A stretch of DNA of 64,000 bases from an uncultured Bacteroidota bacterium (GTDB taxonomy: Bacteria > Bacteroidota > Bacteroidia > JABEUT01), in assembly GCA_903901055.1 (NCBI GenBank), contig CAIUPO010000051.1, forward strand, positions 8,312 to 72,311, read 5' to 3'. How positions within the stretch are numbered: position 1 is the stretch's first letter; every line of letters starts with the position of its first letter. The notes below the pieces were generated by a model that was not told the DNA's origin, did not search any database, and saw nothing but the letters and a program-made list of their open reading frames with translations. Of this stretch, positions 21,893-41,980 are shown piece after piece. The position numbers and the translations under genes are program-made.

Positions 21893-23683
21893 TTAGTATT
21901 GAATTAATACGGAACCGTTACCTGAAGTTACTAAAGTAGTATTTACACTAACACTTGTAACACCTGGTCCGGCCACATAATTCATAGCTCCGCCACCACC
22001 GGTATAACTGCCGCCGCCGCCGCCATAGTAACCACCACCACCACCACCACCGGTACCACACCCAACACCACCGGTAAGTTGAGTTCCTGCACTTGCGCTG
22101 CACACATAAGTGCCGGCTAAACCACCTAAAGCCGTAGTAGAACCACCGCCGGCATTACCGCCATTATACTGAACACCGGAGTAGTACCCGGATCCAGCTA
22201 ATGCAGTTGCAGTGCCGCCCGGTCCTCCATTTTCTGAATTCGCAGTGTGGTAGTCATTACCTGCACCTCCTCCACCGCCTGCGCTCAACACAACATTTGC
22301 CCATGCATTACCACCAATTCTGATATCGGTTGCACCACCACCTCCTCCTCCGCCATAACCGGAGCCGGAGTAAGTGCCACTGGCACCGCCACCGTTAAAT
22401 CCACCTGGTGCGGTATAAAGCGATGTAGTAGAACCAATTCCACCTGCACCTCCAACATTAATATTCAGAGTACTTCCTCCTGCAACAGTTACAACAGCAA
22501 TAACTGTTCCACCATTAGCCCCAATACTAAACCCATCGCCTGAATTTCCACCGGATGCACCGTTTAATGTAACTGTAATCTGGCTTATACATGCGGGAAC
22601 AGTCCATGTAGTTGCTCCTACAGCTAAAAATGGTATACTGCTGTGAAGGCAATTTATTGATGTAACCGACAAGCATGAAGTAGCGCTGTTACAAAATCCG
22701 CTGATGGCGTATACGCAAATATTCATAGTCCCTGCTGTTCCGCTAAATGCAATGGTAGTCGAAGTTGTACCTTGTCCACTAATAATAACACCATTTGTTG
22801 TGGATACAGACCAAAAATAACTGGTTGCACCTGGTACTGTTGCTACAGTATAAGTATTGGATGTATTAATAGTAGGCGAAGTGGGGCCACCAATTGTTCC
22901 TGGTGTACCAATACTACAAGGGCAAGATATATTTTGCCAGGCAGCACCTGTATAATACTGTAAGCATCCTGTTGTGCTGTTTAATACCACTAATCCTGTG
23001 GCAGGGCCTACAATTGTAGAAGGATTTGCAATACGAGGAGGCAGCAAACCTTGTGTTGCTGATGTAATATCTAACGCAGCAGAAGCGTTAGGAGTGCTCG
23101 TTCCTATTCCCACCTGTCCGGGGATAATTATTCCATTGGCAGGCGCTGCAGTTCCGGCATAAGAACCGAAAGCAGCATTTCCCTTAACATCTAATTTATT
23201 AACGGGGGTTAATGCAGTGGAAGAAATACTTACTCCTGTTCCATTATCCTGAGCAACACCTGTACCTAGATTTGATGCGCTCGTCCAGCGCGATACATAT
23301 CCTGCTGTTCCGGCACCGGTAATTGTACTACCGATTCCACTATTCAGTATATAAAGCCAGGTATTTGCGGGGGAACCGGTAGAGCCGGTCCAGTAATAGA
23401 AGCCTACTCCCTGCCCGCCGGTCATTAAGGCATTTGTATTCCATACAAGCAGCCCTGTAGCAGCACCAACAATGGTGGTATTGTCGGTAATAGATACCAA
23501 ACTTACATTCGGCAGAAGAAACCCAAGGTTAGCATTGGAAGCATCACTCAAATCCAATATGGCCGGCTTTGTGCTTGCTACTCCATTTTTGTTAATGGCC
23601 ACATTGGCAGGTTGTGAATAAAGCGCAAGCGAAACACTTAATAACAGTATAACAAGCGCACTTTTTATGTAATGTTTATTCAT
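21893..23683 (-). CDS. Secreted protein: duplicated N-terminal domain + 1 PKD-like module + polyglycine C-terminal domain (paralog 1)
   Basis: Signal peptide MNKHYIKSALVILLLSVSLALYSQ (alternative upstream start at 23734). Shares blocks with the two upstream genes (AQDNGTGVSISSTALTPVNKLDV; NASAALDITS..GLLPPR). The C-terminus has WTVPACISQITVTLNGASGG and runs of GGGGGG, and ends GNGSVLIQY. Confidence 0.85.
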   Translation of the reverse strand: MNKHYIKSALVILLLSVSLALYSQPANVAINKNGVASTKPAILDLSDASNANLGFLLPNVSLVSITDNTTIVGAATGLLVWNTNALMTGGQGVGFYYWTGSTGSPANTWLYILNSGIGSTITGAGTAGYVSRWTSASNLGTGVAQDNGTGVSISSTALTPVNKLDVKGNAAFGSYAGTAAPANGIIIPGQVGIGTSTPNASAALDITSATQGLLPPRIANPSTIVGPATGLVVLNSTTGCLQYYTGAAWQNISCPCSIGTPGTIGGPTSPTINTSNTYTVATVPGATSYFWSVSTTNGVIISGQGTTSTTIAFSGTAGTMNICVYAISGFCNSATSCLSVTSINCLHSSIPFLAVGATTWTVPACISQITVTLNGASGGNSGDGFSIGANGGTVIAVVTVAGGSTLNINVGGAGGIGSTTSLYTAPGGFNGGGASGTYSGSGYGGGGGGGATDIRIGGNAWANVVLSAGGGGGAGNDYHTANSENGGPGGTATALAGSGYYSGVQYNGGNAGGGSTTALGGLAGTYVCSASAGTQLTGGVGCGTGGGGGGGYYGGGGGSYTGGGGAMNYVAGPGVTSVSVNTTLVTSGNGSVLIQY

Positions 23684-23738
23684 AATATTTATTTTACTGC
23701 AATTCATAAGTCTTCGGTTTTGATTCAAACGCATACGA

Positions 23739-25769
23739 TTAATATTGTATAATTACAGAACCATTTCCGGTATTTGTTTGTGCAGTACTTGATATGGTAC
23801 CTGCGCAATAAGAACCGCCGCCCGCGCCACCTGTATCAGGGTCACCGCCGCCACCGCCGCCATTATATCCGCCGCCACCGCCACCGCCATAATCGCCGCC
23901 GCCGCCGCCGCCGCCATATCCTCCAGGATCTGTACCATCATAACCGGCTACCGCAGTAAAATTATTAGCTTTATCATTACCTCCTGTACTTGAACCATAT
24001 CCATTTACGCCATTACCCAGATATCCTGCACCGCCTGCTGCTCCATATGTTCCGAGTGCACCGCCGCCACCGCCTTCGCCTGTTCCGGCCGCAGCATCTG
24101 CTGTGCCTGTTCCCACAGTCGGTGTGGTAGTTAAACTGCCGGGAGCTCCTATATTGCCTGTTATATATCCGCCGCCGCCGCCGCCGCCTGCAACTTCCAA
24201 AACAGTACCTGTATTATTATCCCAAATGAATGTGCCTCCTCCTCCTCCTCCTCCGTCATCGGAATTATCACCACCTCCAACACCACCTGTTACAATATTA
24301 AGTGTATGCCCACCAGTTACGGTAACCACTCCAATTATTGTAGCACCGTTACCACCTGCTACAGGAGTAGCAGTATATTGTCCATATCCACCTGCACCAC
24401 CTACTGCAGTAATCGTTATTTGTGTGACGCATGCAGGTATAGTCCATGTTTGCACTGAGTTTGAATATGTAAATGTTGGCACTGTACCATGCGCACAAGT
24501 TGTTGAAGTAACAGACAAACACGAAGGGGCGCTAGTCCCACATACATTGCTCGCTGTTACACATATATTCATAGTAGCTGCTGTACCTGAAAAAGTAATA
24601 GTTACAGAAGTAGTGCCTTGTCCCGCTGTTACTGTTCCGTTTGTTGAAGATACTGACCAGGAATAATTGGTTGCCCCGGCAACAGCAGCAATTGTATACG
24701 TATTTGCCGTGCTGATTGCAGGCGCTGTAGTACCTGAAGGAACTGCAGGCGCTGCCGGAATACCGTTAGAAATTGTTAGTGCAAGAACTGAAGGAGCGCT
24801 TGTTCCGCAACTGTTAACTGCTGCTACTGTTATATACCCGGATGTTGCACCCATGGTAACAGTAATAGAAGTACCTGTATTTGCTGTTATAGTTGCGCCG
24901 GGTGGAACCGTCCATATATATGAAGTAGCATTTAGTATTGGTAATATGGTATATACGTTTCCGGTTGTTGATGCACATGCTGCAGTATTACCGGTAATGG
25001 CTCCGGGCATGTCGGGACGTGTATTACAAGGGCAGGCTAAATTCAGCCAGGCTGTTCCGGTATAGTACTCCAAACAATTCGTTGTTGAATTTAATACTAC
25101 CAATCCTGTAGCAGGGGTTGCAATTAAAGATATGCTTGCTCCCGGAATACGCGGAGGAAGCAATCCTTGTGTTGTGGATGTAATATCTAACGTTGCGGAA
25201 GCATTGGGTGCATTTGTGCCAATCCCCACATTTCCAGATACAATTAAACCATTTGAAGGGGCAGCGGTTCCGGCATACGTGCCAAAAGCTGCATTTCCAT
25301 TAACATCTAATTTGTTTACAGGGGTTAAGGCTGTTGAAGAGATACTAACTCCTGTTCCATTATCCTGGGCTACTCCGTTTGCTAATGCGGTTGCGCTTGT
25401 CCAACGGGCTGAATATCCCGTAGTACCGGAGCCTGTGAGCGAACCTCCCACTACCCCACTGTTCGTAATATATAACCAGGCAGTGCCAGACCAATAATAA
25501 AATCCAACCCCTAATGGCAATGCAGCATTGGTGTTCCAAACAATCATACCAACGGTTGGTGCGGGTATGGTAACAATATCGGCCGTAGAGGCCAGGTTCA
25601 CATTCGTCATCAGGAACCCTAGGTTCGGATTGTTACTAAGGTCAAGAACAGCTGATGCGTTTGGTGGGTTTCCGGTACTATTAATACCAACGGTACCTTG
25701 TGAATAAAGCGCAAGTGAAACACTTAACAGGAGTGCAACCAGAGCGCCTTTTATGTAATGCTTATTCAT
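23739..25769 (-). CDS. Secreted protein: duplicated N-terminal domain + 2 PKD-like modules + polyglycine C-terminal domain (paralog 2)
   Basis: Signal peptide MNKHYIKGALVALLLSVSLALYSQ (alternative start at 25805). Its stop lies 4 nt before paralog 1's listed ORF start at 23734 (55 nt before the ATG at 23683 that I prefer). Ends ...GGGGGGDYGGGGGGGYNGGGGGG...GNGSVIIQY. Confidence 0.85.
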   Translation of the reverse strand: MNKHYIKGALVALLLSVSLALYSQGTVGINSTGNPPNASAVLDLSNNPNLGFLMTNVNLASTADIVTIPAPTVGMIVWNTNAALPLGVGFYYWSGTAWLYITNSGVVGGSLTGSGTTGYSARWTSATALANGVAQDNGTGVSISSTALTPVNKLDVNGNAAFGTYAGTAAPSNGLIVSGNVGIGTNAPNASATLDITSTTQGLLPPRIPGASISLIATPATGLVVLNSTTNCLEYYTGTAWLNLACPCNTRPDMPGAITGNTAACASTTGNVYTILPILNATSYIWTVPPGATITANTGTSITVTMGATSGYITVAAVNSCGTSAPSVLALTISNGIPAAPAVPSGTTAPAISTANTYTIAAVAGATNYSWSVSSTNGTVTAGQGTTSVTITFSGTAATMNICVTASNVCGTSAPSCLSVTSTTCAHGTVPTFTYSNSVQTWTIPACVTQITITAVGGAGGYGQYTATPVAGGNGATIIGVVTVTGGHTLNIVTGGVGGGDNSDDGGGGGGGTFIWDNNTGTVLEVAGGGGGGGYITGNIGAPGSLTTTPTVGTGTADAAAGTGEGGGGGALGTYGAAGGAGYLGNGVNGYGSSTGGNDKANNFTAVAGYDGTDPGGYGGGGGGGDYGGGGGGGYNGGGGGGDPDTGGAGGGSYCAGTISSTAQTNTGNGSVIIQY

Positions 25770-25841
25770 ATTAATATGTTTACTGAATTTTTTCGTATTG
25801 GTCAATGCTATTTATTTTTTTCAAAATAGGTCCTTCTATTT

Positions 25842-28700
25842 TTAATATACAATCGTTACAGCGCCTGTCGCATTATTTGCCCCTGCAGTCATTGATGTTC
25901 CTGTTCCGAATGGAGCAACGTAAGAACCTCCACCCTGGCCTGCGGCATCATCACCATTTCCGCCGCCGCCGCCATTATATCCACCACCGCCACCGCCGGC
26001 ACCACAACCACTTTCCCAAGCACCGCCACCACCGCCAAATCCTCCAGCTCCACCATAACTTCCACCTGCAGCACCACCAGCACCGCCGTTTGCCGGACTT
26101 TTGCCACCTATAGATCCTCCGTTAACACCTCCTGTACCATTGGATAGCCAACCTCCACCACCAGCAGCTCCATTTCCAGTTCCTCCTCCACCACCGTTTC
26201 CTAACACACCGCCTGCAGCAGTTCCAAGTCCGCCAGCAGCAATAGTGGTAGCATTTGTAGATGAACCTGCACCCGCTTGGAATACACATGGTGAATTACC
26301 GCCGCCGCCGCCGCCTGCGGCAACATAAAGTGTGGTAGTATTATTATCCCATACATAACTTCCGCCTCCGCCGCCGCCAGTATAAGCGTCAGAAGATGTT
26401 GCACCTGATGTTGCGGTTAAAACTTTCATTACGTGACCTGGGGTAACCGTAAATGTTCCAACCACGGTAGCTCCTCTTCCGGCAAAAGTTCCACTACCAC
26501 CACCTTTAGCTCCCTTGGCTGTAATAGTAATTGATGTGATACCACAAGGAACAGTCCAACTTGTAATAGAACCTGCTGTACCGGTGAATGTGCTGTGTAC
26601 AACTACACAACCAGAAGAAGTTACAGTTAAGCAAGAAGTGGCACTTGTCCCACAAGCATTACCAGCCGTTACACAGATAGTGTATGTTCCGGCCGTTGCA
26701 GTATTTAATATAGTTACCGATGTTGTTCCTTGTCCTAACGATACTGTTGCAAGGTTAGTATTAGAAGTAGACCAGGTATATGTTGTTGCATTTGCAATTG
26801 CAGTAGTAGTATAAACGAAAGAAGCGCTTGTTGACGGAGTAGTGCTTCCTGAAGGAACTGTAGGCACAGAAGGGGTTCCATTAATGGTAACCGCCAAGCT
26901 GCTTGCAGCACTTGTTCCGCATGCATTTTGAGCTGTAACAGTTATATTTCCTGTAAAATAAGATGCGCCTAAAGTAATTGTAATTGAAGTTGTTCCTGCC
27001 CCTGCGGTAATAGTACCTACCCCGGCGGGAACTGTCCAGTTATAAGTGGTTGCACCGGGAACCGCTACTATAGTATATACGTGGTTAGTTGTGCTGTATT
27101 GGTTACAGTAGGATGCAGTTCCTGAAATAATACCTGGAGTAGCAGGTATAGAGGAAAGAGTAATTGCCAATGCAGGGCTTGAGCCGCTTGTTCCGCAGGC
27201 ATTGCCGGCTGTAACCGTAATATTTCCATTAGTTGTTCCCATAGTTACGGTAATGGAGGTAGTTCCTGTCCCTGCCGTAATAGTAGCACCAGCAGGTACT
27301 GACCAAGTGTAGGTTGTTGCTCCTGCAACAGATGCAATTGTATAAACATTACCTGTGCTTGAAGCGCATGGAGTAGCAGGTCCGGTTATTATTCCCGGTG
27401 CTGAAGGTGTTGTACCTAAAGTAACTGCGAGAGTGCTTGCGGCACTTGTTCCGCATGCATTTTGTGCAGTAACCGTAATATTTCCGGGGTTAGTACCCAA
27501 GGTAACTGTAATGGAAGTTCCAGTATTGGCAGTTATTGTTGCACCTGGGGGTACAGTCCAGTTATAGCTGGTAGCAAAGGTAACAGCAGTAATGGTATAC
27601 ACATTTCCGGCTGATGATATGCAAGGCGTTGCATTTCCTGAAATTGCGCCTGGTGTAGCGGGAACTGGAGATGCAGTAACTGCAAGAGTGCTTGCGGCGC
27701 TTGTTCCGCAACTATTTGTGGCAGTAACTGAAATATTGCCACTGGAAGTACCCATTGTTACGGTTATTGAATTGGTGCCCTGACCGGCAGTAATGGTAGC
27801 TCCCGCAGGAATAGACCATGTATAATAAAGAGCACCTGCAACAGCAGTAATGCTATAAACATTTCCTCCTGAAGTTGCACAAGGAGTTGCAGTGCCTGTT
27901 ATTCCACCCGGAGTTGCCGGTGCGCCTGCACATTGGCAGGTAATACTCTGCCAGCTTACACCACTCCAATATTGCATGCAATTAGTAGTGGAATTAAATA
28001 CGATCAACCCAATTGCCGGAGTGCCGATAGCCGTTATTTGGCCTGTTGTCATGCGGGGAGGAAGCAATCCACCCGTAGTGGATGTAATATCTAAAGCTGC
28101 TGAAGCATTTGGTGCGTTTGTTCCTATTCCGGTTTGTCCTGATATAATTACACCACCAACCGGAGCAGCTGTTCCGGCATAAGTACCGAAAGCTGCGTTA
28201 CCATTAACATCCAATTTATTTACAGGGGTTAAAGCCACTGTAGATATACTTACACCAGTGCCATTATCTTGTGCAGCGCCTGTACCTAAAGTTGAAGCGC
28301 TTGTCCATTTGGCTAAATAATTAGGGATTCCTGTACCAGTTGGTGCACTTGGACTTCCGCTATTTTTTATATATAACCACGCAGTGCCCGACCAATAATA
28401 ATAACCTACACCTAAGGGTAATGCCCCGTTGGTATTCCAAATAATAGTTCCAACCACCGGGCCCGGAATGGTTGCCACATCCGATGTTGAAACCAAACTC
28501 ACGTTAGGCATAAGTAAGCCCATGTGAGCATTGGAAGAATGGCTTAAGTCTAATATAGCCGGATTGCTGCTTGCTGCACCCGCCGAGTTAATGGAAATGT
28601 ATCCGGTTTGTGAAAAAAGAGAAAATGAAATACTTAAAAACAACGCAACCAGCGTGCATTTTCCCAACGCGTTCCATTTGGAAGTGTAATATTTATTCAT
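25842..28700 (-). CDS. Secreted protein: duplicated N-terminal domain + 5 PKD-like modules + polyglycine C-terminal domain (paralog 3)
   Basis: 952 aa with a signal peptide ending FSLFSQ. Five ~85-aa modules follow the pattern GNVYTI.AV.GAT.Y.W.VP.GATITAG.GT.SITVT.G...GNITVTA.NACGTSA. The Gly-rich tail ends TGAVTIVY. Confidence 0.85.
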   Translation of the reverse strand: MNKYYTSKWNALGKCTLVALFLSISFSLFSQTGYISINSAGAASSNPAILDLSHSSNAHMGLLMPNVSLVSTSDVATIPGPVVGTIIWNTNGALPLGVGYYYWSGTAWLYIKNSGSPSAPTGTGIPNYLAKWTSASTLGTGAAQDNGTGVSISTVALTPVNKLDVNGNAAFGTYAGTAAPVGGVIISGQTGIGTNAPNASAALDITSTTGGLLPPRMTTGQITAIGTPAIGLIVFNSTTNCMQYWSGVSWQSITCQCAGAPATPGGITGTATPCATSGGNVYSITAVAGALYYTWSIPAGATITAGQGTNSITVTMGTSSGNISVTATNSCGTSAASTLAVTASPVPATPGAISGNATPCISSAGNVYTITAVTFATSYNWTVPPGATITANTGTSITVTLGTNPGNITVTAQNACGTSAASTLAVTLGTTPSAPGIITGPATPCASSTGNVYTIASVAGATTYTWSVPAGATITAGTGTTSITVTMGTTNGNITVTAGNACGTSGSSPALAITLSSIPATPGIISGTASYCNQYSTTNHVYTIVAVPGATTYNWTVPAGVGTITAGAGTTSITITLGASYFTGNITVTAQNACGTSAASSLAVTINGTPSVPTVPSGSTTPSTSASFVYTTTAIANATTYTWSTSNTNLATVSLGQGTTSVTILNTATAGTYTICVTAGNACGTSATSCLTVTSSGCVVVHSTFTGTAGSITSWTVPCGITSITITAKGAKGGGSGTFAGRGATVVGTFTVTPGHVMKVLTATSGATSSDAYTGGGGGGSYVWDNNTTTLYVAAGGGGGGNSPCVFQAGAGSSTNATTIAAGGLGTAAGGVLGNGGGGGTGNGAAGGGGWLSNGTGGVNGGSIGGKSPANGGAGGAAGGSYGGAGGFGGGGGAWESGCGAGGGGGGYNGGGGGNGDDAAGQGGGSYVAPFGTGTSMTAGANNATGAVTIVY
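26613..27920 (-). repeat. Five tandem coding repeats (~255 nt each) encoding PKD-like modules inside paralog 3
   Basis: Covers aa ~261-696 of the 952-aa protein. The repeats are visible as recurring ...NVYTI...ATITAG...ITVT...CGTS... blocks. Confidence 0.8.
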
Positions 28701-29260
28701 ATTTTTAAACAGTTTTTCATCAATATTAAAGAGGCAGACCCGGCAATTTTGCCTTCTTTCTCAAGGGGAAGTTCTTCCAGGGGATTAAGAGAAAAAGAAA
28801 GTAAAATTAAAAAATTACTAACAAATTCCGCCTAAGTTAACGAAATTTTACTTGAATTGTTCCTATTTAAATTATATATATACACAACGATGCTATTTTT
28901 AATCCTATTTTAATCTCTCCATTAAACACAACTGACTTAAATCAGTTTTTTTTAGCTGAAACCAATAATTCAAAAATTTAACTTTTCTTTTTGATTTAAT
29001 TTTAGTAGGGGTACTTTTATCTTTGAGGGGAATAGGGTCAGATAGTTATCATCTTTTGGGAGGTATTTACTAAAGGTAATTTTGCCCCGATTTCAATAAA
29101 AAATGCTTTTTGAGGTTTTCTACCTCCTTAATTAAGTTCTATACCTTTACTAGCCAACTGTACAATAGGCTAATGGTAGCTTTTAAATTATACGTCTTAA
29201 TGTCTGTATTTCAATAAAAAAGCCTTATGAGAATTACCCGATAAGCAGTTAATTTTTAAG

Positions 29261-29610
<350 letters not shown>

Positions 29611-29619
29611 TTCCTGTTT

Positions 29620-29697
29620 TGGTGGGAGCTACCGGGTTCGAACCGATGACCCTCTGCTTGTAAGGCAGATGCTCTGAACCAGCTGAGCTAAGCTCCC
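29620..29697 (-). tRNA. tRNA-Val (anticodon UAC), with CCA encoded
   Basis: The reverse complement is GGGAGCT TA GCTC AGCTGGTTCA GAGC A TCTGC CTTACAA GCAGA GGGTC ATCGG TTCGAAC CCGGT AGCTCCC A CCA, which folds as a canonical cloverleaf. Confidence 0.9.
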
Positions 29698-29753
29698 AAA
29701 AAGGTTTGCAAATGTAATAATTATTAGGAACGGCGATACAAATTTATTTTTTC

Positions 29754-32153
29754 TTAATCCCCTGTTCCACCTCCATATCCACCATAACTTCCATATCCGC
29801 CGTAACCACCATAGCCTCCATATCCACCATAATAACCGTAACTATAACGATTATAGTAGTATTTGGACCTTCTTCTCTTCACGTTATTCAATACAAATCC
29901 GAAATTTTTGATCTTATTCATTACTACGGTATCATGAATATTTTGAACTGCTTCACGATAAGCATATTTTGTGTTCAGTACAAAAAGATTAATATCAGAA
30001 ACATTCATAAGTACAAAAGCATCCGAAATTAAACCTATAGGAGGAGTGTCTACAATAACATAGTCGTAATGCAGTTTGCCAAAATCAAGGATATCTTTTA
30101 CGCGTGGTGAAAGAACCAACTCCGATGAGTTTGGTGGAATTGGCCCGCAAAGAATAATGTCCATACCAGGTATTGGTGTTGGTAATACGCAATCAGCAAT
30201 TTCTGATTTGCCAATAAGGATAGTGCTTAAACCAATATCTGCCTTAATATTCAAAGCTTTGTGAATACGGGGTTTATGAAGATCAAACTCAAGGAGTAAA
30301 ACCTTTTTTTCTGCCTTTGCAAGTATGGCACCTAAGTTGATAGAGCAAAATGTTTTACCTTCTCCTGGGCCATTCGAAGTAAACAACAAAACCTTTGACC
30401 CGGATACATTGCCGGTGGTCATATACTGTAAATTTGTACGCAACACCCTGAAAGATTCCGTTAACGGAGATTTTGGGTTGTTTTCAATAGCTACAGATAA
30501 GTTAGCAAGTGTAGGCGCACTTAATATTTCCCCTACTACAGGCAACGTTGTTTTCTGCTTCAGTTCTGCAATATTCTCAATACGATCGTAAAAAGTAACC
30601 CTGATAAAAATTAAGAAAACACCAAGTAAAGCACCTCCCATAATAAACATCAATAATGTTTTATTTCGGTTAGGCTCGATAACTCCTATCGACCTGGGGA
30701 TTTCAATTATCTCAGTTTTTGGAATAATTGTGGCCCGTTGAATAAGTGTTGTTGCTTTCTCCTGTAAAAGGAATGAATAGAGTTGCTCGTTCACATCCTG
30801 TTGTGTACTGATATTTGTTAAGCCCCTTTGCTTATCCGGTATAGTCTTTATCAGTTCAACATATTGGCTTAACTGGGAACTGTTGTCTTTAATAAGATTA
30901 TTGGTAGCCGCCCTGTCCTTGGCAATGTATGTCATTATTTTTTGCTTGAGGGAATCGATTTTATTATCAATCGAAGACATTGCAATATTTTCTTTGGTCC
31001 CTTTGGCCGCTTCATCAATTCGTCCAATCTGCAAACCATACAATTGATCTACTGTAGTTTTAAGGAAGTCATCATCACTATTAATATAAACTGAAGGAGG
31101 AAGAAATTGAGGGTCCTTATCTTCAATAATATATTTTTCCAGATCATTCAATACACTTACCTGAGCTTCCAGTGTTGTCCTGTTAGCATCAAGGGTATTA
31201 TATTGGCTAAAGTATTCATCCTCTTCCCTATCAAGGTCAAGAATATTTTTCTTGGCCTCATAATTTTGTATAGAAAGACTTATTGTGTCCAATTTCCCCA
31301 ACTCATCGTTAAGTAATTTATTAACAAATTCAATAGTGCGGGTATTTACCCTGATTTCATGGTCAACTACATTTCTCACATACATATTTATCAATGTATC
31401 CAAAAATGCAACTCCTCTTTGGGGATTAGGGTCTTTCAATGTTATTTGAAGCACATTTGTTTTTTCAGGCACCTGAATATCCAGCATGTTTTTTTGAATA
31501 TTACTAACCATGCTATTAAGGTTATGTACTTTTATGTAATAATTAGATATTATAGTTTCATTCGGCCTTAGATTGACCACCTTCATTTTAATATCCGTAT
31601 TAACAATATAATCTCCGAAAGTTCCTGAAAGGGTATATGGCTTTTTATCCTTCTCGTAACTTATTTTATAATGGTATTTATCTATATAATTAAATTTAAT
31701 ATTCGATTCATATAAACTTCCATTGATGTTCAAAACGCTTATCTTGAAAGGAACATTTGCGAACATTTCCTTATCATTCAACCTGCCTTCAATATAATAT
31801 GAAACACCAATATCAAGCTTATCCACTACTTTCCTTAACAAATCAAATGATTCGATAACTTGAATTTCATTATAGTTTTTAACCTGTTGGTTCCCTAATA
31901 AAGAACCGGACCCGGAACCTCCACTTGATAAATTAGAAAGCGCATCGAGTGTTGAACTGGACTCATCCTCAGATTTTAATAAAAGCTCGGTAACAACTGC
32001 ATAAACGTCCTGCAATGTTTTACCGTAATACCATCCGGCAGCTGCTGAAAGCCCTACAAATACAACAAAAATCCACCAGTTTTTCTTAATTACACGAAGG
32101 AATGATTTTAAATCGTTTAAATCAAATATTGCGCCACTACTACGGTTTTCCAT
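29754..32153 (-). CDS. wzc: Polysaccharide biosynthesis tyrosine autokinase (Wzc/PCP-2a type)
   Basis: Two TM segments flank a large coiled periplasmic domain. The C-terminal BY-kinase domain has Walker A (SNGPGEGKT) and a Walker B-like VIVDTPP. The Tyr-rich tail is YYYNRYSYGYYGGYGGYGGYGGYGSYGGYGG. Confidence 0.85.
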   Translation of the reverse strand: MENRSSGAIFDLNDLKSFLRVIKKNWWIFVVFVGLSAAAGWYYGKTLQDVYAVVTELLLKSEDESSSTLDALSNLSSGGSGSGSLLGNQQVKNYNEIQVIESFDLLRKVVDKLDIGVSYYIEGRLNDKEMFANVPFKISVLNINGSLYESNIKFNYIDKYHYKISYEKDKKPYTLSGTFGDYIVNTDIKMKVVNLRPNETIISNYYIKVHNLNSMVSNIQKNMLDIQVPEKTNVLQITLKDPNPQRGVAFLDTLINMYVRNVVDHEIRVNTRTIEFVNKLLNDELGKLDTISLSIQNYEAKKNILDLDREEDEYFSQYNTLDANRTTLEAQVSVLNDLEKYIIEDKDPQFLPPSVYINSDDDFLKTTVDQLYGLQIGRIDEAAKGTKENIAMSSIDNKIDSLKQKIMTYIAKDRAATNNLIKDNSSQLSQYVELIKTIPDKQRGLTNISTQQDVNEQLYSFLLQEKATTLIQRATIIPKTEIIEIPRSIGVIEPNRNKTLLMFIMGGALLGVFLIFIRVTFYDRIENIAELKQKTTLPVVGEILSAPTLANLSVAIENNPKSPLTESFRVLRTNLQYMTTGNVSGSKVLLFTSNGPGEGKTFCSINLGAILAKAEKKVLLLEFDLHKPRIHKALNIKADIGLSTILIGKSEIADCVLPTPIPGMDIILCGPIPPNSSELVLSPRVKDILDFGKLHYDYVIVDTPPIGLISDAFVLMNVSDINLFVLNTKYAYREAVQNIHDTVVMNKIKNFGFVLNNVKRRRSKYYYNRYSYGYYGGYGGYGGYGGYGSYGGYGGGTGD

Positions 32154-38469: not shown

Positions 38470-39324
38470 TTACTTCTTAATAGCAGGTGGGTGTGTCAAC
38501 CCGATGTTTACGGAATCTTTATGCGTAAGCTGGTTGCTTTCGTTCATTATTCTGTATTCAGCTCTGGTCACGCTATAAGTTTGTGGCCTGTCGTTTAACC
38601 GCAATGTTATTCCAACCTGCCCGTAGTAAGGCGAGCCAAGCCCTGCCTCAAACTGTAATCCTAAATCCTGCACTGGGAAATATCGTAGTCCCCAAAGCAC
38701 CTGAAAACTTAATTTAGTATTGTTAGTTGAATTAATAACCGGGTAGTAATAATAATAATTAGGGTTTGATGTCCATTGGTCTTGTTCATTCCAAATGGAT
38801 ATTCCTGCCCTTACACCCATGTAAAAATGAACATTGTCGCTGTTTCTCCCCATAAAATAAAAAAGATTCCGCATACCTATATTCAAGCGGGTGAATGTGG
38901 CAAGGTTCGGGTAACGGTTGTAATAATTACCCTGGTAACTATTTTGATTAACAAATTGAATCTCCTGGTAATTGACGCCGATACCCATACTTATAATTCG
39001 CGCGATCAGCATATCAAGCGAGCCTCCGAATTCCGGAAGGTGGTTAATGCTGAAGCCACTGGAATAATTATAATAACCATTTCCGTAATTTTCAATCGGA
39101 CTAAGCAACGATGTCATATCGCCATAGCCAATCCCTCCGGTAATAAAGACTTCCCCGGGATTAAGCTCCCTGTTGGTTGAAACAGGAATTTGTATGAGCA
39201 TGCTTCTATTCGAATCCGGCGGAGACGAAAACGATTTATCCAAATACGGAATATTCGCAATACTTCTTGCACTATTAAAAAGCAAGCAGGATGCCATCAT
39301 TAAAAGAACAGGATGCCTTTTCAT
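38470..39324 (-). CDS. Hypothetical secreted/outer-membrane protein
   Basis: Signal peptide, composition rich in Gly/Asn/Tyr, and alternating beta-strand-like pattern. Confidence 0.4.
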   Translation of the reverse strand: MKRHPVLLMMASCLLFNSARSIANIPYLDKSFSSPPDSNRSMLIQIPVSTNRELNPGEVFITGGIGYGDMTSLLSPIENYGNGYYNYSSGFSINHLPEFGGSLDMLIARIISMGIGVNYQEIQFVNQNSYQGNYYNRYPNLATFTRLNIGMRNLFYFMGRNSDNVHFYMGVRAGISIWNEQDQWTSNPNYYYYYPVINSTNNTKLSFQVLWGLRYFPVQDLGLQFEAGLGSPYYGQVGITLRLNDRPQTYSVTRAEYRIMNESNQLTHKDSVNIGLTHPPAIKK

Positions 39325-39881: not shown

Positions 39882-39889
39882 TACCTTTG
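39882..39889 (+). promoter_or_regulatory. Bacteroidota-type -7 promoter element (TACCTTTG)
   Basis: Matches TAnnTTTG 52 nt upstream of the paaZ ATG at 39941. It lies inside the listed longer ORF, which argues against the TTG start at 39887. Confidence 0.45.
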
Positions 39890-39940
39890 AACCTTATTAT
39901 GACTTTACATTCACCATTAACAATTTACAATTCTAAATAT

Positions 39941-41980
39941 ATGAAACTCGCTAACTATGTAGAAGGAAAATGGGTGGAAGGCCTTGGAGAAGGTGTTCCG
40001 CTATTTAATGCTATAAACGGAGAACTGATTGCCGAAGCCACTACCAAAGGTTTGGACTTTGGTGAAATACTTGACTATGCCCGCAACACAGGCAGCCCTG
40101 CTTTGCGTAAAATGACTTTCCATGAAAGGGCCTTGATGCTGAAAAAACTGGCGCTGCACCTCACTGCGAAAAAAGAAATGTTCTATAAACTGTCCTACGC
40201 GACAGGCGCTACCAAGGTTGATTCCTGGGTGGATATTGAGGGCGGTATCGGTAACCTGTTTGTATACGCCAGCAAAGGCCGGCGTGAATTACCCAACGAA
40301 CCATTTTTTGTGGATGGCAAACCGGAAATTGTCTCTAAAAACGGGACATTTATCGGGCACCATATTTGTGTGCCATTGGAAGGAACTGCGGTACATATTA
40401 ATGCATTCAATTTCCCATGCTGGGGAATGTTGGAAAAGATAGCTGTGAACTTATTGGCAGGTATGCCCGCTATTGTGAAGCCTGCGACCATTACATCATA
40501 CCTCACCCAAATAATGGTGCAGGAAATTATTTCTTCGGGTATATTACCGGAAGGCGCATTGCAGCTGCTTTGCGGCAGTACAGGCGATTTGCTTGACCAC
40601 CTTACTTGTCAAGATGTAGTTACCTTTACAGGTAGTGCATCCACCGGAAAAAAATTAAAATCGCATGCTTCCATTTTAGAAAATTCGGTGCGATTTACCA
40701 TGGAAGCAGACTCCTTGAACTGTTGTATTCTCGGGCCTGATGCGGTTCCCGGAAGTGAAATATTCAATCTCTTTATTAAAGAAGTTGCACGCGAAATGAC
40801 CACCAAAGCAGGCCAAAAATGTACTGCTATCCGCCGTACCATTGTCCCCGATAACCTGACAGAACCTGTTATTGATGCACTTAAGAAAAGACTTGCAACC
40901 ATTGCAATTGGCGACCCTCAGAAAGAAGGTGTCCGTATGGGCTCCCTCGCAGGAAAAGAACAGGTAAAAGAGGTGATGGAAAAAGTAAAAATGCTTCAAA
41001 AATCATGTGAGACCGTTTTCGGAAATTACGATGACTTTGAAGTAATGGCTGCCGATAAAAAGAAAGGTGCATTCTTCCCGAGTATGTTGCTATATAGCAA
41101 AGATCCGCTCCACAATATGGCTCCGCATGAACTGGAAGCTTTCGGCCCGGTTAGCACCGTAATGCCTTACAAAACCGCCGCCGATGCTATTGCTATTGCA
41201 AAGCTTGGCAAAGGCAGTCTGGTAGGTTCTATATTTACCGAAGACGATTCCTTTGCGCGTCAAATGGTGTTGGGTACTGCAGCCTATCATGGACGTATGG
41301 TAGTGATTAATTCCAAGTCTGCCGGAGAAAGTACAGGGCATGGTTCTCCCCTGCCCCACCTCGTTCACGGCGGGCCGGGACGTGCAGGAGGCGGTGAAGA
41401 AATGGGCGGCATGCGTGGCATTTTCCACTATATGCAGCGCACCGCTATACAAGGCCACCCGACCACCATTACAGCTATTACCGATGTGTACCAACCCAAG
41501 TCAGAACAGATACATACCCTCACCCACCCTTTCCGCAAATATTTTGATGAGTTGCAGATTGGCGAAACCGAAGTAACCCACAAACGCACCGTTACCGAAG
41601 CCGACATTGTGAATTTTGCCAATATAAGCGGAGATAATTTTTACGCCCATACGGATGTTACATCCCTCGAAGGCACTATGTTTACTAGCCGTGTTGCACA
41701 TGGTTATTTTGTACTCTCTATGGCGGCAGGATTATTTGTTGACCCGCGCAAAGGCCCCGTATTAGCAAACTACGGACTGGATGAATGCCGCTTTGTGAAA
41801 CCCGTTTATGTAGGAGCCACCCTTGGTGTGCGCCTAACCGTAAAGGAAAAAACAGCTAAAGAAAACAAAGAAGGAGAACGCCCGCAAGGCATTGTAAAAT
41901 GGCAGGTTGATGTGTATGATGAAACCGGGGAAACGGTTGCTATGGCTACTATTTTGACGATTGTGGCGAGGAAGGAATAA
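39941..41980 (+). CDS. paaZ: Bifunctional aldehyde dehydrogenase / MaoC-type hydratase (PaaZ-like)
   Basis: N-terminal ALDH domain (catalytic-Cys region GQKCTAIRR), EAFGPV and a C-terminal hot-dog/MaoC domain (FANISGDNFYAHTD...HGYF). About 680 aa from MKLANYVEGKW. Confidence 0.85.
   Translation: MKLANYVEGKWVEGLGEGVPLFNAINGELIAEATTKGLDFGEILDYARNTGSPALRKMTFHERALMLKKLALHLTAKKEMFYKLSYATGATKVDSWVDIEGGIGNLFVYASKGRRELPNEPFFVDGKPEIVSKNGTFIGHHICVPLEGTAVHINAFNFPCWGMLEKIAVNLLAGMPAIVKPATITSYLTQIMVQEIISSGILPEGALQLLCGSTGDLLDHLTCQDVVTFTGSASTGKKLKSHASILENSVRFTMEADSLNCCILGPDAVPGSEIFNLFIKEVAREMTTKAGQKCTAIRRTIVPDNLTEPVIDALKKRLATIAIGDPQKEGVRMGSLAGKEQVKEVMEKVKMLQKSCETVFGNYDDFEVMAADKKKGAFFPSMLLYSKDPLHNMAPHELEAFGPVSTVMPYKTAADAIAIAKLGKGSLVGSIFTEDDSFARQMVLGTAAYHGRMVVINSKSAGESTGHGSPLPHLVHGGPGRAGGGEEMGGMRGIFHYMQRTAIQGHPTTITAITDVYQPKSEQIHTLTHPFRKYFDELQIGETEVTHKRTVTEADIVNFANISGDNFYAHTDVTSLEGTMFTSRVAHGYFVLSMAAGLFVDPRKGPVLANYGLDECRFVKPVYVGATLGVRLTVKEKTAKENKEGERPQGIVKWQVDVYDETGETVAMATILTIVARKE

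Follow-up and report, generated by a model that had tools for sequence, protein, structure and literature searches.

The 64-kb window analysed here, by which we mean the whole stretch of DNA from an uncultured Bacteroidota bacterium, contains an array of three paralogous genes (referred to in the following as A, B, and C) that all lie on the minus strand, run in the same direction, and encode proteins built on a single plan: a signal peptide, two PTL units, a stalk of PKD_6 domains, and a glycine-rich head. We regard the family as real, conserved, and uncharacterised, and would class it with surface proteins of the tail-fibre-like or fibrillar-adhesin kind. Gene A (25842..28700, minus strand) codes for 952 amino acids (aa) with five PKD_6 domains, as attested by the open reading frame (ORF), five Pfam PKD_6 stretches, the precomputed annotation PF26696 plus PF19408, and a 79%-identical ortholog, P0011, in another genome. 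Gene B (23739..25805, minus strand), recognised from its ORF and from Pfam, is a 688-aa ORF that opens with TTG and includes two PKD_6 domains, its probable start being the ATG at 25769, which leads to a product of 676 aa, the length likewise given by gene callers. Gene C (21893..23734, minus strand), a 613-aa ORF with one PKD_6 domain and a Pfam match to PF12810 (E 3.6e-11), has a signal-peptide-like start in the ATG at 23683, from which 596 aa would be translated. Between the listed ORFs lie gaps of 36 and 4 nt, which become 72 and 55 nt when the internal MNKHY starts (25769 and 23683) are taken. The original prediction, made from the sequence alone, had described three co-directional genes separated by these gaps, a near-identical signal peptide in two of the products, an internally duplicated N-terminal domain, a strongly conserved linker, 5, 2, and 1 PKD-like modules, a C-terminal glycine-rich domain of some 250 aa, and no sorting domain of the type IX secretion system (T9SS), and had named PF19408 and PF12810 as the families to be expected; our ORF coordinates, alignments, and profile searches agree on each of these points.

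The three proteins can be aligned from end to end (A with B at 57% identity, A with C at 50%), almost all the differences in length being due to blocks of PKD-like modules. The GC content of the array region is 0.46–0.48, versus 0.32–0.40 in the flanks, which rise fits a coding sequence rich in Gly, Ala, and Thr codons; as to overall composition, Lys, Arg, Asp, and Glu together make up only about 2–4% of each protein, and Gly, Thr, Ser, and Ala 53–59%. Several long ORFs on the plus strand (24103–24666, 24667–25065, 25132–25497, 25805–26113, 26515–26814, and 27892–28182), some of them with Pro-rich translations, are wholly contained within the minus-strand genes and appear to be shadows of that Gly/Ala/Thr-rich coding, so that they should not be annotated as genes. 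The exact Bacteroidetes TAnnTTTG motif was absent from the intergenic regions.

All three products begin with a signal peptide. Those of B (MNKHYIKGALVALLLSVSLALYSQ) and C (MNKHYIKSALVILLLSVSLALYSQ) are near-identical in the alignment, with the consensus MNKHYIK[GS]ALV[AI]LLLSVSLALYS followed by Q, and that of A is related to them. In A the signal peptide comprises residues 1–30 (28611..28700, minus strand), with a hydrophobic core of Kyte–Doolittle value 2.4 and an end in ...FSLFS before the Gln; in B it is encoded at 25701..25769 (MNKHYIKGALVALLLSVSLALYS, then Q) and in C at 23615..23683 (MNKHYIKSALVILLLSVSLALYS, then Q), both on the minus strand. Cleavage by signal peptidase I that exposes an N-terminal Gln is common in the Bacteroidota, and since in the homologs the residues ahead of the first PTL unit are typically [FY][SA]Q, the pattern fits such a processing. 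Certain Cys positions are common to the three proteins and invariant in the alignments; they fall in the PKD modules and where PTL unit 2 ends. No lipobox was present: Cys is missing from the signal peptides of B and C, and Cys15 of A precedes the hydrophobic core and is not part of a lipobox. Nor did the searches with Pfam and NCBIfam, at E≤1, find a T9SS C-terminal domain of either type A (PF18962/TIGR04183) or type B (PF13585/TIGR04131) in A, B, or C; NCBIfam had no family for any of the three.

The mature proteins start, directly after the signal peptide, with a module of about 230 aa that consists of two PTL units joined by a beta-fibre-like linker. A hidden Markov model (HMM) built from the second copy of the duplicated unit was matched by both halves of each protein, with E-values between 1e-17 and 3e-22 in the first unit and between 1e-30 and 1e-33 in the second, and in all three proteins the unit corresponds to PF26696 ("PTL_trimer") in the precomputed public Pfam annotation; its consensus reads VGIGTxxPxASAxLDITSTxKGxLxPRMTxxxRxAIxxPAxGLxVYNTxxxxxxYYxGxxW. 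On the minus strand of the window, unit 1 of A (28365..28610; E 1.8e-17), at the mature N-terminus, is a divergent variant of the form 'GLLMPNVSL ... WNTN ... YYYWSG..W', and unit 2 (27930..28154; E 9.5e-34) is a canonical PF26696 unit ending in C..C.C. The corresponding units lie at 25461..25700 (E 2.7e-22) and 25026..25250 (E 4.3e-31) in B, and at 23345..23614 (E 3.9e-17) and 22916..23134 (E 1.6e-30) in C, in which protein the cores of the two units reached a predicted local distance difference test (pLDDT) of 85–90 and 82–90, respectively, in the AlphaFold2 (AF2) model. The linker of A (28155..28364, minus strand), of the form G.G..NY.AKWTS...LGTG.AQDNGTGVSIS..ALTPVNKLDVNGNAAFGTYAGTAAP, has 90% aa identity between the paralogs with diverged codons, and the alignment of the paralogs places its counterparts at 25251..25460 in B and 23135..23344 in C, also on the minus strand, the latter being of low pLDDT in the monomer model; the stretch AQDNGTGVSISS..LTPVNKLDV.GNAAFG.YAGTAAP is 90–97% identical between the paralogs.

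When the profile of the N-terminal module was compared with 1.84 billion representative proteins, 56,563 matched at E≤1e-3, 23,431 at ≤1e-10, and 857 at ≤1e-30; the module is therefore a very common building block, its superfamily comprising some 56,000 representatives. Among the proteins collected here, 144 of the 251 PTL units lie within the first 45 residues, and the Pfam partners of the unit include Peptidase_S74, YadA_head, Collagen, Collar, FISUMP, Lcl_C, and fn3. No paper on PF26696 or PTL_trimer, nor one explaining that name, was found. Against the fibre Bd2133 (residues 662–1031) of the Bdellovibrio mosaic adhesive trimer (MAT) proteins, the module gave only a weak, motif-level match (E 0.04) at a VGIGTxxP-type motif. 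Within Flavobacterium, Winogradskyella, and their relatives (L016–L083) we observed large proteins of 600–1,900 aa whose signal peptide is followed at once by a single PTL unit; in the one of them that was scanned against Pfam (L022 9974–15070, 1,698 aa), YadA_head repeats were recognised as well and, at the C-terminus, a Peptidase_S74 chaperone domain. Such large single-PTL proteins adjoin TPR-LuxR or response-regulator-LuxR genes in about 30 loci, LuxR-type regulators flanking PTL proteins in the Flavobacteriia only.

The next part of each protein is the stalk, in which Pfam recognised five, two, and one stretches of PF19408 (PKD_6) in A, B, and C, with scores of 350, 122, and 41 bits (gathering cut-off 25). 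The stalks extend on the minus strand over 26610..27929 in A (E 1e-106), 24498..25025 in B (E 1.7e-35), and 22652..22915 in C (E 3.3e-10). The CGTS motif that had been described as conserved is so in A, at residues 331, 416, 502, 594, and 683, and in B, at 333 and 422; in the single module of C, however, it has degenerated to FCNS. The PKD_6 family originates from a survey of fibrillar adhesins, in which it was built to describe a stalk domain (10.1101/2020.12.07.414375).

The C-terminal 250 aa or so constitute a glycine-rich domain in all three proteins, with 34–37% Gly in the last 230 aa, and this head belongs to two subtypes: the classical 'ATDIRIGG' type of PF12810 in C (21896..22651, minus strand), and the S[YF]VWDNNT type in A (25845..26609, minus strand; 'SYVWDNNTTTL') and B (23742..24497, minus strand). 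The head of C matched PF12810 (ALK_LTK_GRD) with 44 bits against a cut-off of 24.5, and those of A and B had no Pfam match to that family at E≤1; the profile of the A/B subtype (profile A8), for its part, matched LTK with E 9e-19 and ALK with E 6e-17, and through profile comparison the B head falls into the same subtype. The C-type profile matched human ALK with E 2e-12, positions 22–253 of its 254 pairing with ALK 47–307, in a colinear alignment that sets WTVP against WKVP and GNGsVtI against GHGEVNI, and thus covers the whole domain and not only the Gly runs. Profiles were needed for this result, a search of the PDB with the single protein giving only a marginal ALK match (E 0.27). The AF2 model of C 363–613—the only one of the heads to be modelled—had a pLDDT of 82 and a predicted template-modelling (TM) score of 0.85, and Foldseek aligned it with 21 ALK/LTK chains (E 6e-8 to 1e-4, probability 1.0, TM 0.45–0.54), followed by the cyanophage Pam3 fibre gp24 (E 2.5e-3, probability 0.98) and the Bxb1 tail tip (E 0.014). 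The head is thus homologous to the ligand-binding domain of ALK/LTK, receptors that use it to bind their ligands according to the titles of the PDB complexes. Literature on PF12810 of relevance to bacteria was not found. Of the modelling by domain that the original prediction had proposed, the head of C came out confidently, and the N-terminal module only in part. For what that prediction had called polyglycine C-termini, a folded TNF-like/polyglycine domain is the more apt term. The terminal strands ending in Tyr that it had noted (GNGSVIIQY, GNGSVLIQY, and TGAVTIVY) are indeed there, but constitute no special feature: since they align to GHGEVNIK of ALK, and since in 52 of 74 related glycine-rich domains a G.G.V.I.[YW] strand forms the end of the protein, they are the last beta-strand of the domain rather than a sorting signal.

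The degree of conservation changes along the proteins. Identity among the paralogs is highest in the N-terminal module (60–97% at the aa level) and lowest in the head (20–50%). Of the identical residues, only 50–60% share the same codon, even in the linker of 90–97% identity; because synonymous sites have thus diverged throughout, the paralogs are old and the conservation is due to purifying selection on the protein, and recent gene conversion, considered as the cause of the near-identical linker, was rejected on the same grounds.

The original prediction would have been weakened if related genomes had held no homologous arrays; tandem arrays of three to four such paralogs were found in at least five other Bacteroidota lineages. 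These arrays encode proteins of 946, 638, and 573 aa, plus one of 883 (L002/L004, metagenome-assembled genome KR3_bin-0479); of 716, 704, and 708 aa (L003); of 612, 608, and 612 aa (L085); of 948, 949, and 788 aa (L086); and of 865, 872, 820, and 907 aa (L087); and L030 has three genes each with a single PTL unit and a head. In L002 the first gene, of 946 aa, aligns with A over the full length, the ortholog P0011 belonging to this locus, and the second and third genes have two and one PKD_6 stretches; hence, from the counts in those two genes, the long-to-short gradient looks conserved there. The second and third genes of L002 end, for their part, in an unrelated domain of about 220 aa that is not glycine-rich. 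This replacement domain is beta-rich, matches no Pfam family, contains only 8–14% Gly, and ends in ...V.IHP/VQP; its carriers are P0004 and P0009 (L002 12039–13760 and 9965–11917), and also P0005, P0012, P0014, and P0023. P0002, which has a C-like head and is 77% identical to C, was compared with P0004, which has the replacement head: the two are 70% identical over residues 1–356, lose all similarity right after ...SVTS..C, and are encoded in loci with the same downstream neighbours. Since the break in similarity coincides with the PKD/head junction in syntenic loci, close relatives swap the head at that defined point, and the junction (...CLSVTS..C, then the head) offers a natural boundary for domain-exchange experiments.

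With respect to the genes around the array, its neighbours in the window are an alanyl-tRNA synthetase, a peptidase M23, a 799-aa ORF, glycosyltransferases, and AHSA1/helix-turn-helix genes. The array had been described as lying next to a tRNA and an AT-rich leader; both elements are present—tRNA-Val at 29620–29697 and a non-coding stretch of 613 nt with 31% GC—but a GIY-YIG ORF intervenes, along with that stretch, between the tRNA and gene A, and the adjacency is not conserved in the related arrays. The genes that flank the arrays vary from lineage to lineage, none of the accessory genes being universal, and the tRNA-Val and AT-rich-leader context is hence incidental. The GIY-YIG ORF itself, of 84–90 aa (29314–29586, minus strand, within 29250–29700), is accompanied at about 29262–29306 by a copy of about 45 nt of the 3' part of the tRNA-Val(TAC), from the anticodon loop to the acceptor end, and looks like a small element inserted at the tRNA gene with duplication of the target. 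The 799-aa ORF (29754–32153, minus strand), without a Pfam hit in the gene table, resembles by eye a chain-length/tyrosine-kinase protein of the Wzc type and ends in an unusual, regular Gly-Tyr repeat (YGYYGGYGGYGGYGGYGSYGGYGGGTGD). A second GC-rich stretch (0.45–0.48), at 39887–41980 on the plus strand, was considered as a possible fourth paralog and rejected, since it holds a 697-aa ORF that by eye resembles an aldehyde dehydrogenase fused to a hydratase.

Near the related arrays we observed further genes. The arrays of L086 (1971–6354) and L087 (495–4868) lie directly downstream of genes for CHU_C (type B T9SS C-terminal domain), PorP/SprF-family, and PD40-OmpA proteins, and L087 also holds a 767-aa collagen-repeat protein. 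A family of about 280 aa with a signal peptide and no Pfam match, whose C-terminal half may be a beta-barrel (a guess from the sequence), is present in two to three copies adjoining PTL-PKD arrays at L002 17863–19676, L003 19740–22151, and L004 8786–10599; two genes at L088 4545–6225 are alike in size and syntenic position, and the window has a homolog of 29–30% identity at 38470–39324 (minus strand), 10 kb from the array. Whereas this outer-membrane-protein-like family may supply a partner in the envelope, its presence there may also be coincidental.

From these data we propose, with a confidence that lies only slightly above an even chance, that A, B, and C are fibre-like binding proteins exported by the Sec system, the cellular counterpart of phage tail fibres, and composed according to the anchor–stalk–head grammar of fibrillar adhesins. 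After export through Sec, the double-PTL module would oligomerise, probably as a trimer, and would dock to a component of the envelope, thereby holding the protein at the cell envelope; the PKD_6 stalk would set the reach, at three lengths; and the glycine-rich head would bind an external ligand, such as a glycan or a protein carried by a particle or by another cell. In this manner a small repertoire of specificities might be constituted by the array. The placing of the head at the distal end derives from the polarity of two arrangements: in the related proteins with PTL units, these are N-terminal and the glycine-rich domain is C-terminal, and in those whose C-terminal domain is that of the T9SS—the end that lies nearest the cell once processed—the glycine-rich domain comes right after the signal peptide. 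Because it sits in both opposite the presumed anchor, the polarity supports a distal head. The adhesin or receptor-binding alternative of the original prediction is supported by the homology of the head with ALK/LTK and with the binding domain of phage fibres, by the adhesin stalk family, and by the head swaps. The architecture, which that prediction had presented as having no described function, is not built of unfamiliar parts, each of the PTL, PKD_6, and glycine-rich modules being an existing Pfam family; for the PTL-PKD_6-glycine-rich architecture, or for its arrays, no paper was found.

Several points weigh against this proposal. No outer-membrane export or anchoring signal was recognised in A, B, or C with Pfam and NCBIfam, so that their surface exposure is assumed, and across 84 loci no accessory gene was universally conserved with the arrays. 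PKD domains are usually monomeric and would fit poorly into a rigid trimeric fibre, and the trimeric state is taken from the Pfam family name and the weak motif match to the MAT fibre. The AF2 monomer model of the N-terminal module, with a mean pLDDT of 67, gains good confidence solely for a pair of small three-stranded cores (pLDDT 82–90), the VGIGT and linker parts being poor, which may be expected of an obligate oligomer but proves nothing; in the PDB that model had no significant Foldseek neighbour (best E 0.33), the weak matches all being phage tailspikes. Scans for sigma-70 promoters and terminators found fewer sites than in shuffled sequence and are thus uninformative as to operon status or expression, and the members bear in public records only the names 'glycine-rich protein' or 'hypothetical protein'.

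The same lack of an anchor, lipobox, or T9SS C-terminal domain, together with a composition poor in charged residues (2–4%) and rich in Gly, Thr, Ser, and Ala that is like that of many secreted proteins, and a head with a ligand-binding fold, would also suit soluble binders released by the producer and unattached to it: lectin-like agglutinins, scavengers, or bacteriocin-like recognition proteins acting at a distance. We hold that explanation to be unlikely, if by no means negligible, in view of the N-terminal module being the most conserved part both in the paralogs and across species, which suggests a shared docking partner, and of the polarity of the T9SS-anchored relatives. No toxin or immunity module appeared in Pfam, NCBIfam, or the gene table, and for the bacteriocin-like family that the original prediction had entertained we found nothing in favour. 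Far less probable is a derivation from phage in which the proteins would be tail fibres of a prophage remnant, a tailocin, or a contractile injection system, assembled on the particle. Phage proteins do contain PTL units and glycine-rich heads: PHROGs 22713, 5811, 1589, and 7388 are matched by the head, several tail-fibre PHROGs match at marginal E-values, and the BFVD matches, only marginal and of high root-mean-square deviation, include cyanophage 'tail fiber-like' and 'glycine-rich domain' proteins. Furthermore, one PTL unit is found in a hypothetical protein of the Leptolyngbya phage Lbo-JY46, a tblastn search of 50,697 phage records having returned one PTL-unit match under a low-complexity filter that hides the glycine-rich head. 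Phage fibres, however, assemble in the cytoplasm, whereas A, B, and C each bear a Sec signal peptide and, as is typical of proteins that are exported, have conserved Cys positions. Genes for a capsid, tail, baseplate, sheath, or integrase are lacking within ±10 kb of the array, whose neighbours are housekeeping and polysaccharide genes, and the arrays of other lineages occupy different chromosomal contexts.

A structural or physical role, either in a surface lattice or coat or in the binding of ice by a flat polyglycine-II array, we consider scarcely probable as well. The snow-flea antifreeze protein binds ice through such an array; a polyglycine lattice does present a flat, regular surface, both from general knowledge and in the description of Pam3; the BUCK21-named samples appear to be lake metagenomes; and three paralogs of different length could form layers. 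In Pfam and NCBIfam, however, no S-layer or ice-binding family was matched, and the glycine-rich domain occurs widely, both among phages and across many habitats. Moreover, in the orthologs the head has been exchanged for an unrelated domain that is not glycine-rich, which replacement better fits interchangeable tips. For ice binding, and for the surface-lattice family likewise contemplated at the outset, we found nothing positive in support, nor was any lattice family found.

Returning to the proposal of exported, fibre-like binding proteins, a bolder form of it would make of the double-PTL module a new device for surface display without a T9SS C-terminal domain, and of the arrays a MAT-like repertoire of swappable heads on graded stalks by which the cell would recognise other cells, as might serve predation, epibiosis, aggregation, or the decoying of phages; this extension is speculative, and we think it improbable. 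Were the proposal itself true, uncultured freshwater Bacteroidota would carry small cassettes of tail-fibre-like surface proteins, whose heads share a fold with phage host selection and with the binding of cytokines by ALK. The TNF-like/polyglycine domain would gain a bacterial context open to experiment, a further route of anchoring or export would be indicated for proteins without a T9SS signal, and the logic of a "conserved base, swapped tip" in the MAT fibres of Bdellovibrio would be extended to another phylum.

Among the known systems, the likeness to ALK/LTK (PF12810; PDB 7lrz, 7n00, and 7nx0) is one of homology over the whole domain, which begins in the alignment with the 'W.VP' strand, takes in the GGGGGG segments, and closes with the G.G.V.I strand, with a model TM of about 0.5 and a domain that in ALK/LTK binds ligand; these are, however, membrane kinases that bind ALKAL cytokines, whereas A, B, and C are secreted and have no kinase, EGF-like, or transmembrane parts. 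The phylum and the head family are shared by T9SS cargo proteins with an N-terminal glycine-rich domain and a Por_Secre_tail (for example, P0053, P0056, P0067, and P0089), annotated as 'glycine-rich protein' or 'T9SS type A sorting domain-containing protein', in place of whose T9SS domain A, B, and C have PTL units. With the PKD_6-stalk fibrillar adhesin-like proteins (Monzon, Lafita & Bateman; 10.1101/2020.12.07.414375) they share tandem PF19408 stalks of variable repeat number that project a terminal non-stalk domain, and differ in being short (one to five stalk domains) and without a recognised anchor. In Pam3 gp24 (PDB 7ypx/7yfw; related to S16 gp38) the TNF-like domain and the glycine-rich one make up the end by which a trimeric fibre binds its receptor, and resemble ALK of Caenorhabditis elegans (PMC9608196), and in a Klebsiella phage fibre the host-range mutations map to the glycine-rich domain (PMC12671077). 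The fold of the head, the distal position in the fibre, and a conserved N-terminal docking end are thus common to gp24 and to our proteins; gp24, in contrast, docks to the baseplate by an alpha-helical N-terminus, needs a fibre chaperone, and has neither signal peptide nor PKD stalk, whereas A, B, and C are exported cellular proteins with no chaperone gene recognised nearby. The MAT proteins of Bdellovibrio bacteriovorus combine a signal peptide with an invariant N-terminal domain, which presumably binds to the surface of the predator, a fibre that is trimeric, and tips that are swapped (PMC10769870). They, too, are encoded by the cell, have after the signal peptide a conserved N-terminal domain without a PDB homologue, and exchange the C-terminal tips of their fibre or stalk between paralogs and relatives, with many paralogs per genome and an ancestry in phage tail fibres; a VGIGTxxP-type motif is weakly shared. 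The MAT fibre is a long trimeric beta-helix, whereas the stalk of A, B, and C is made of immunoglobulin-like PKD_6 domains, and the latter proteins have an ALK-type head, two PTL units, a host in the Bacteroidota, and no S74 chaperone domain. The likeness is here architectural only, and on that analogy the MAT family would be the closest functional counterpart of the array.

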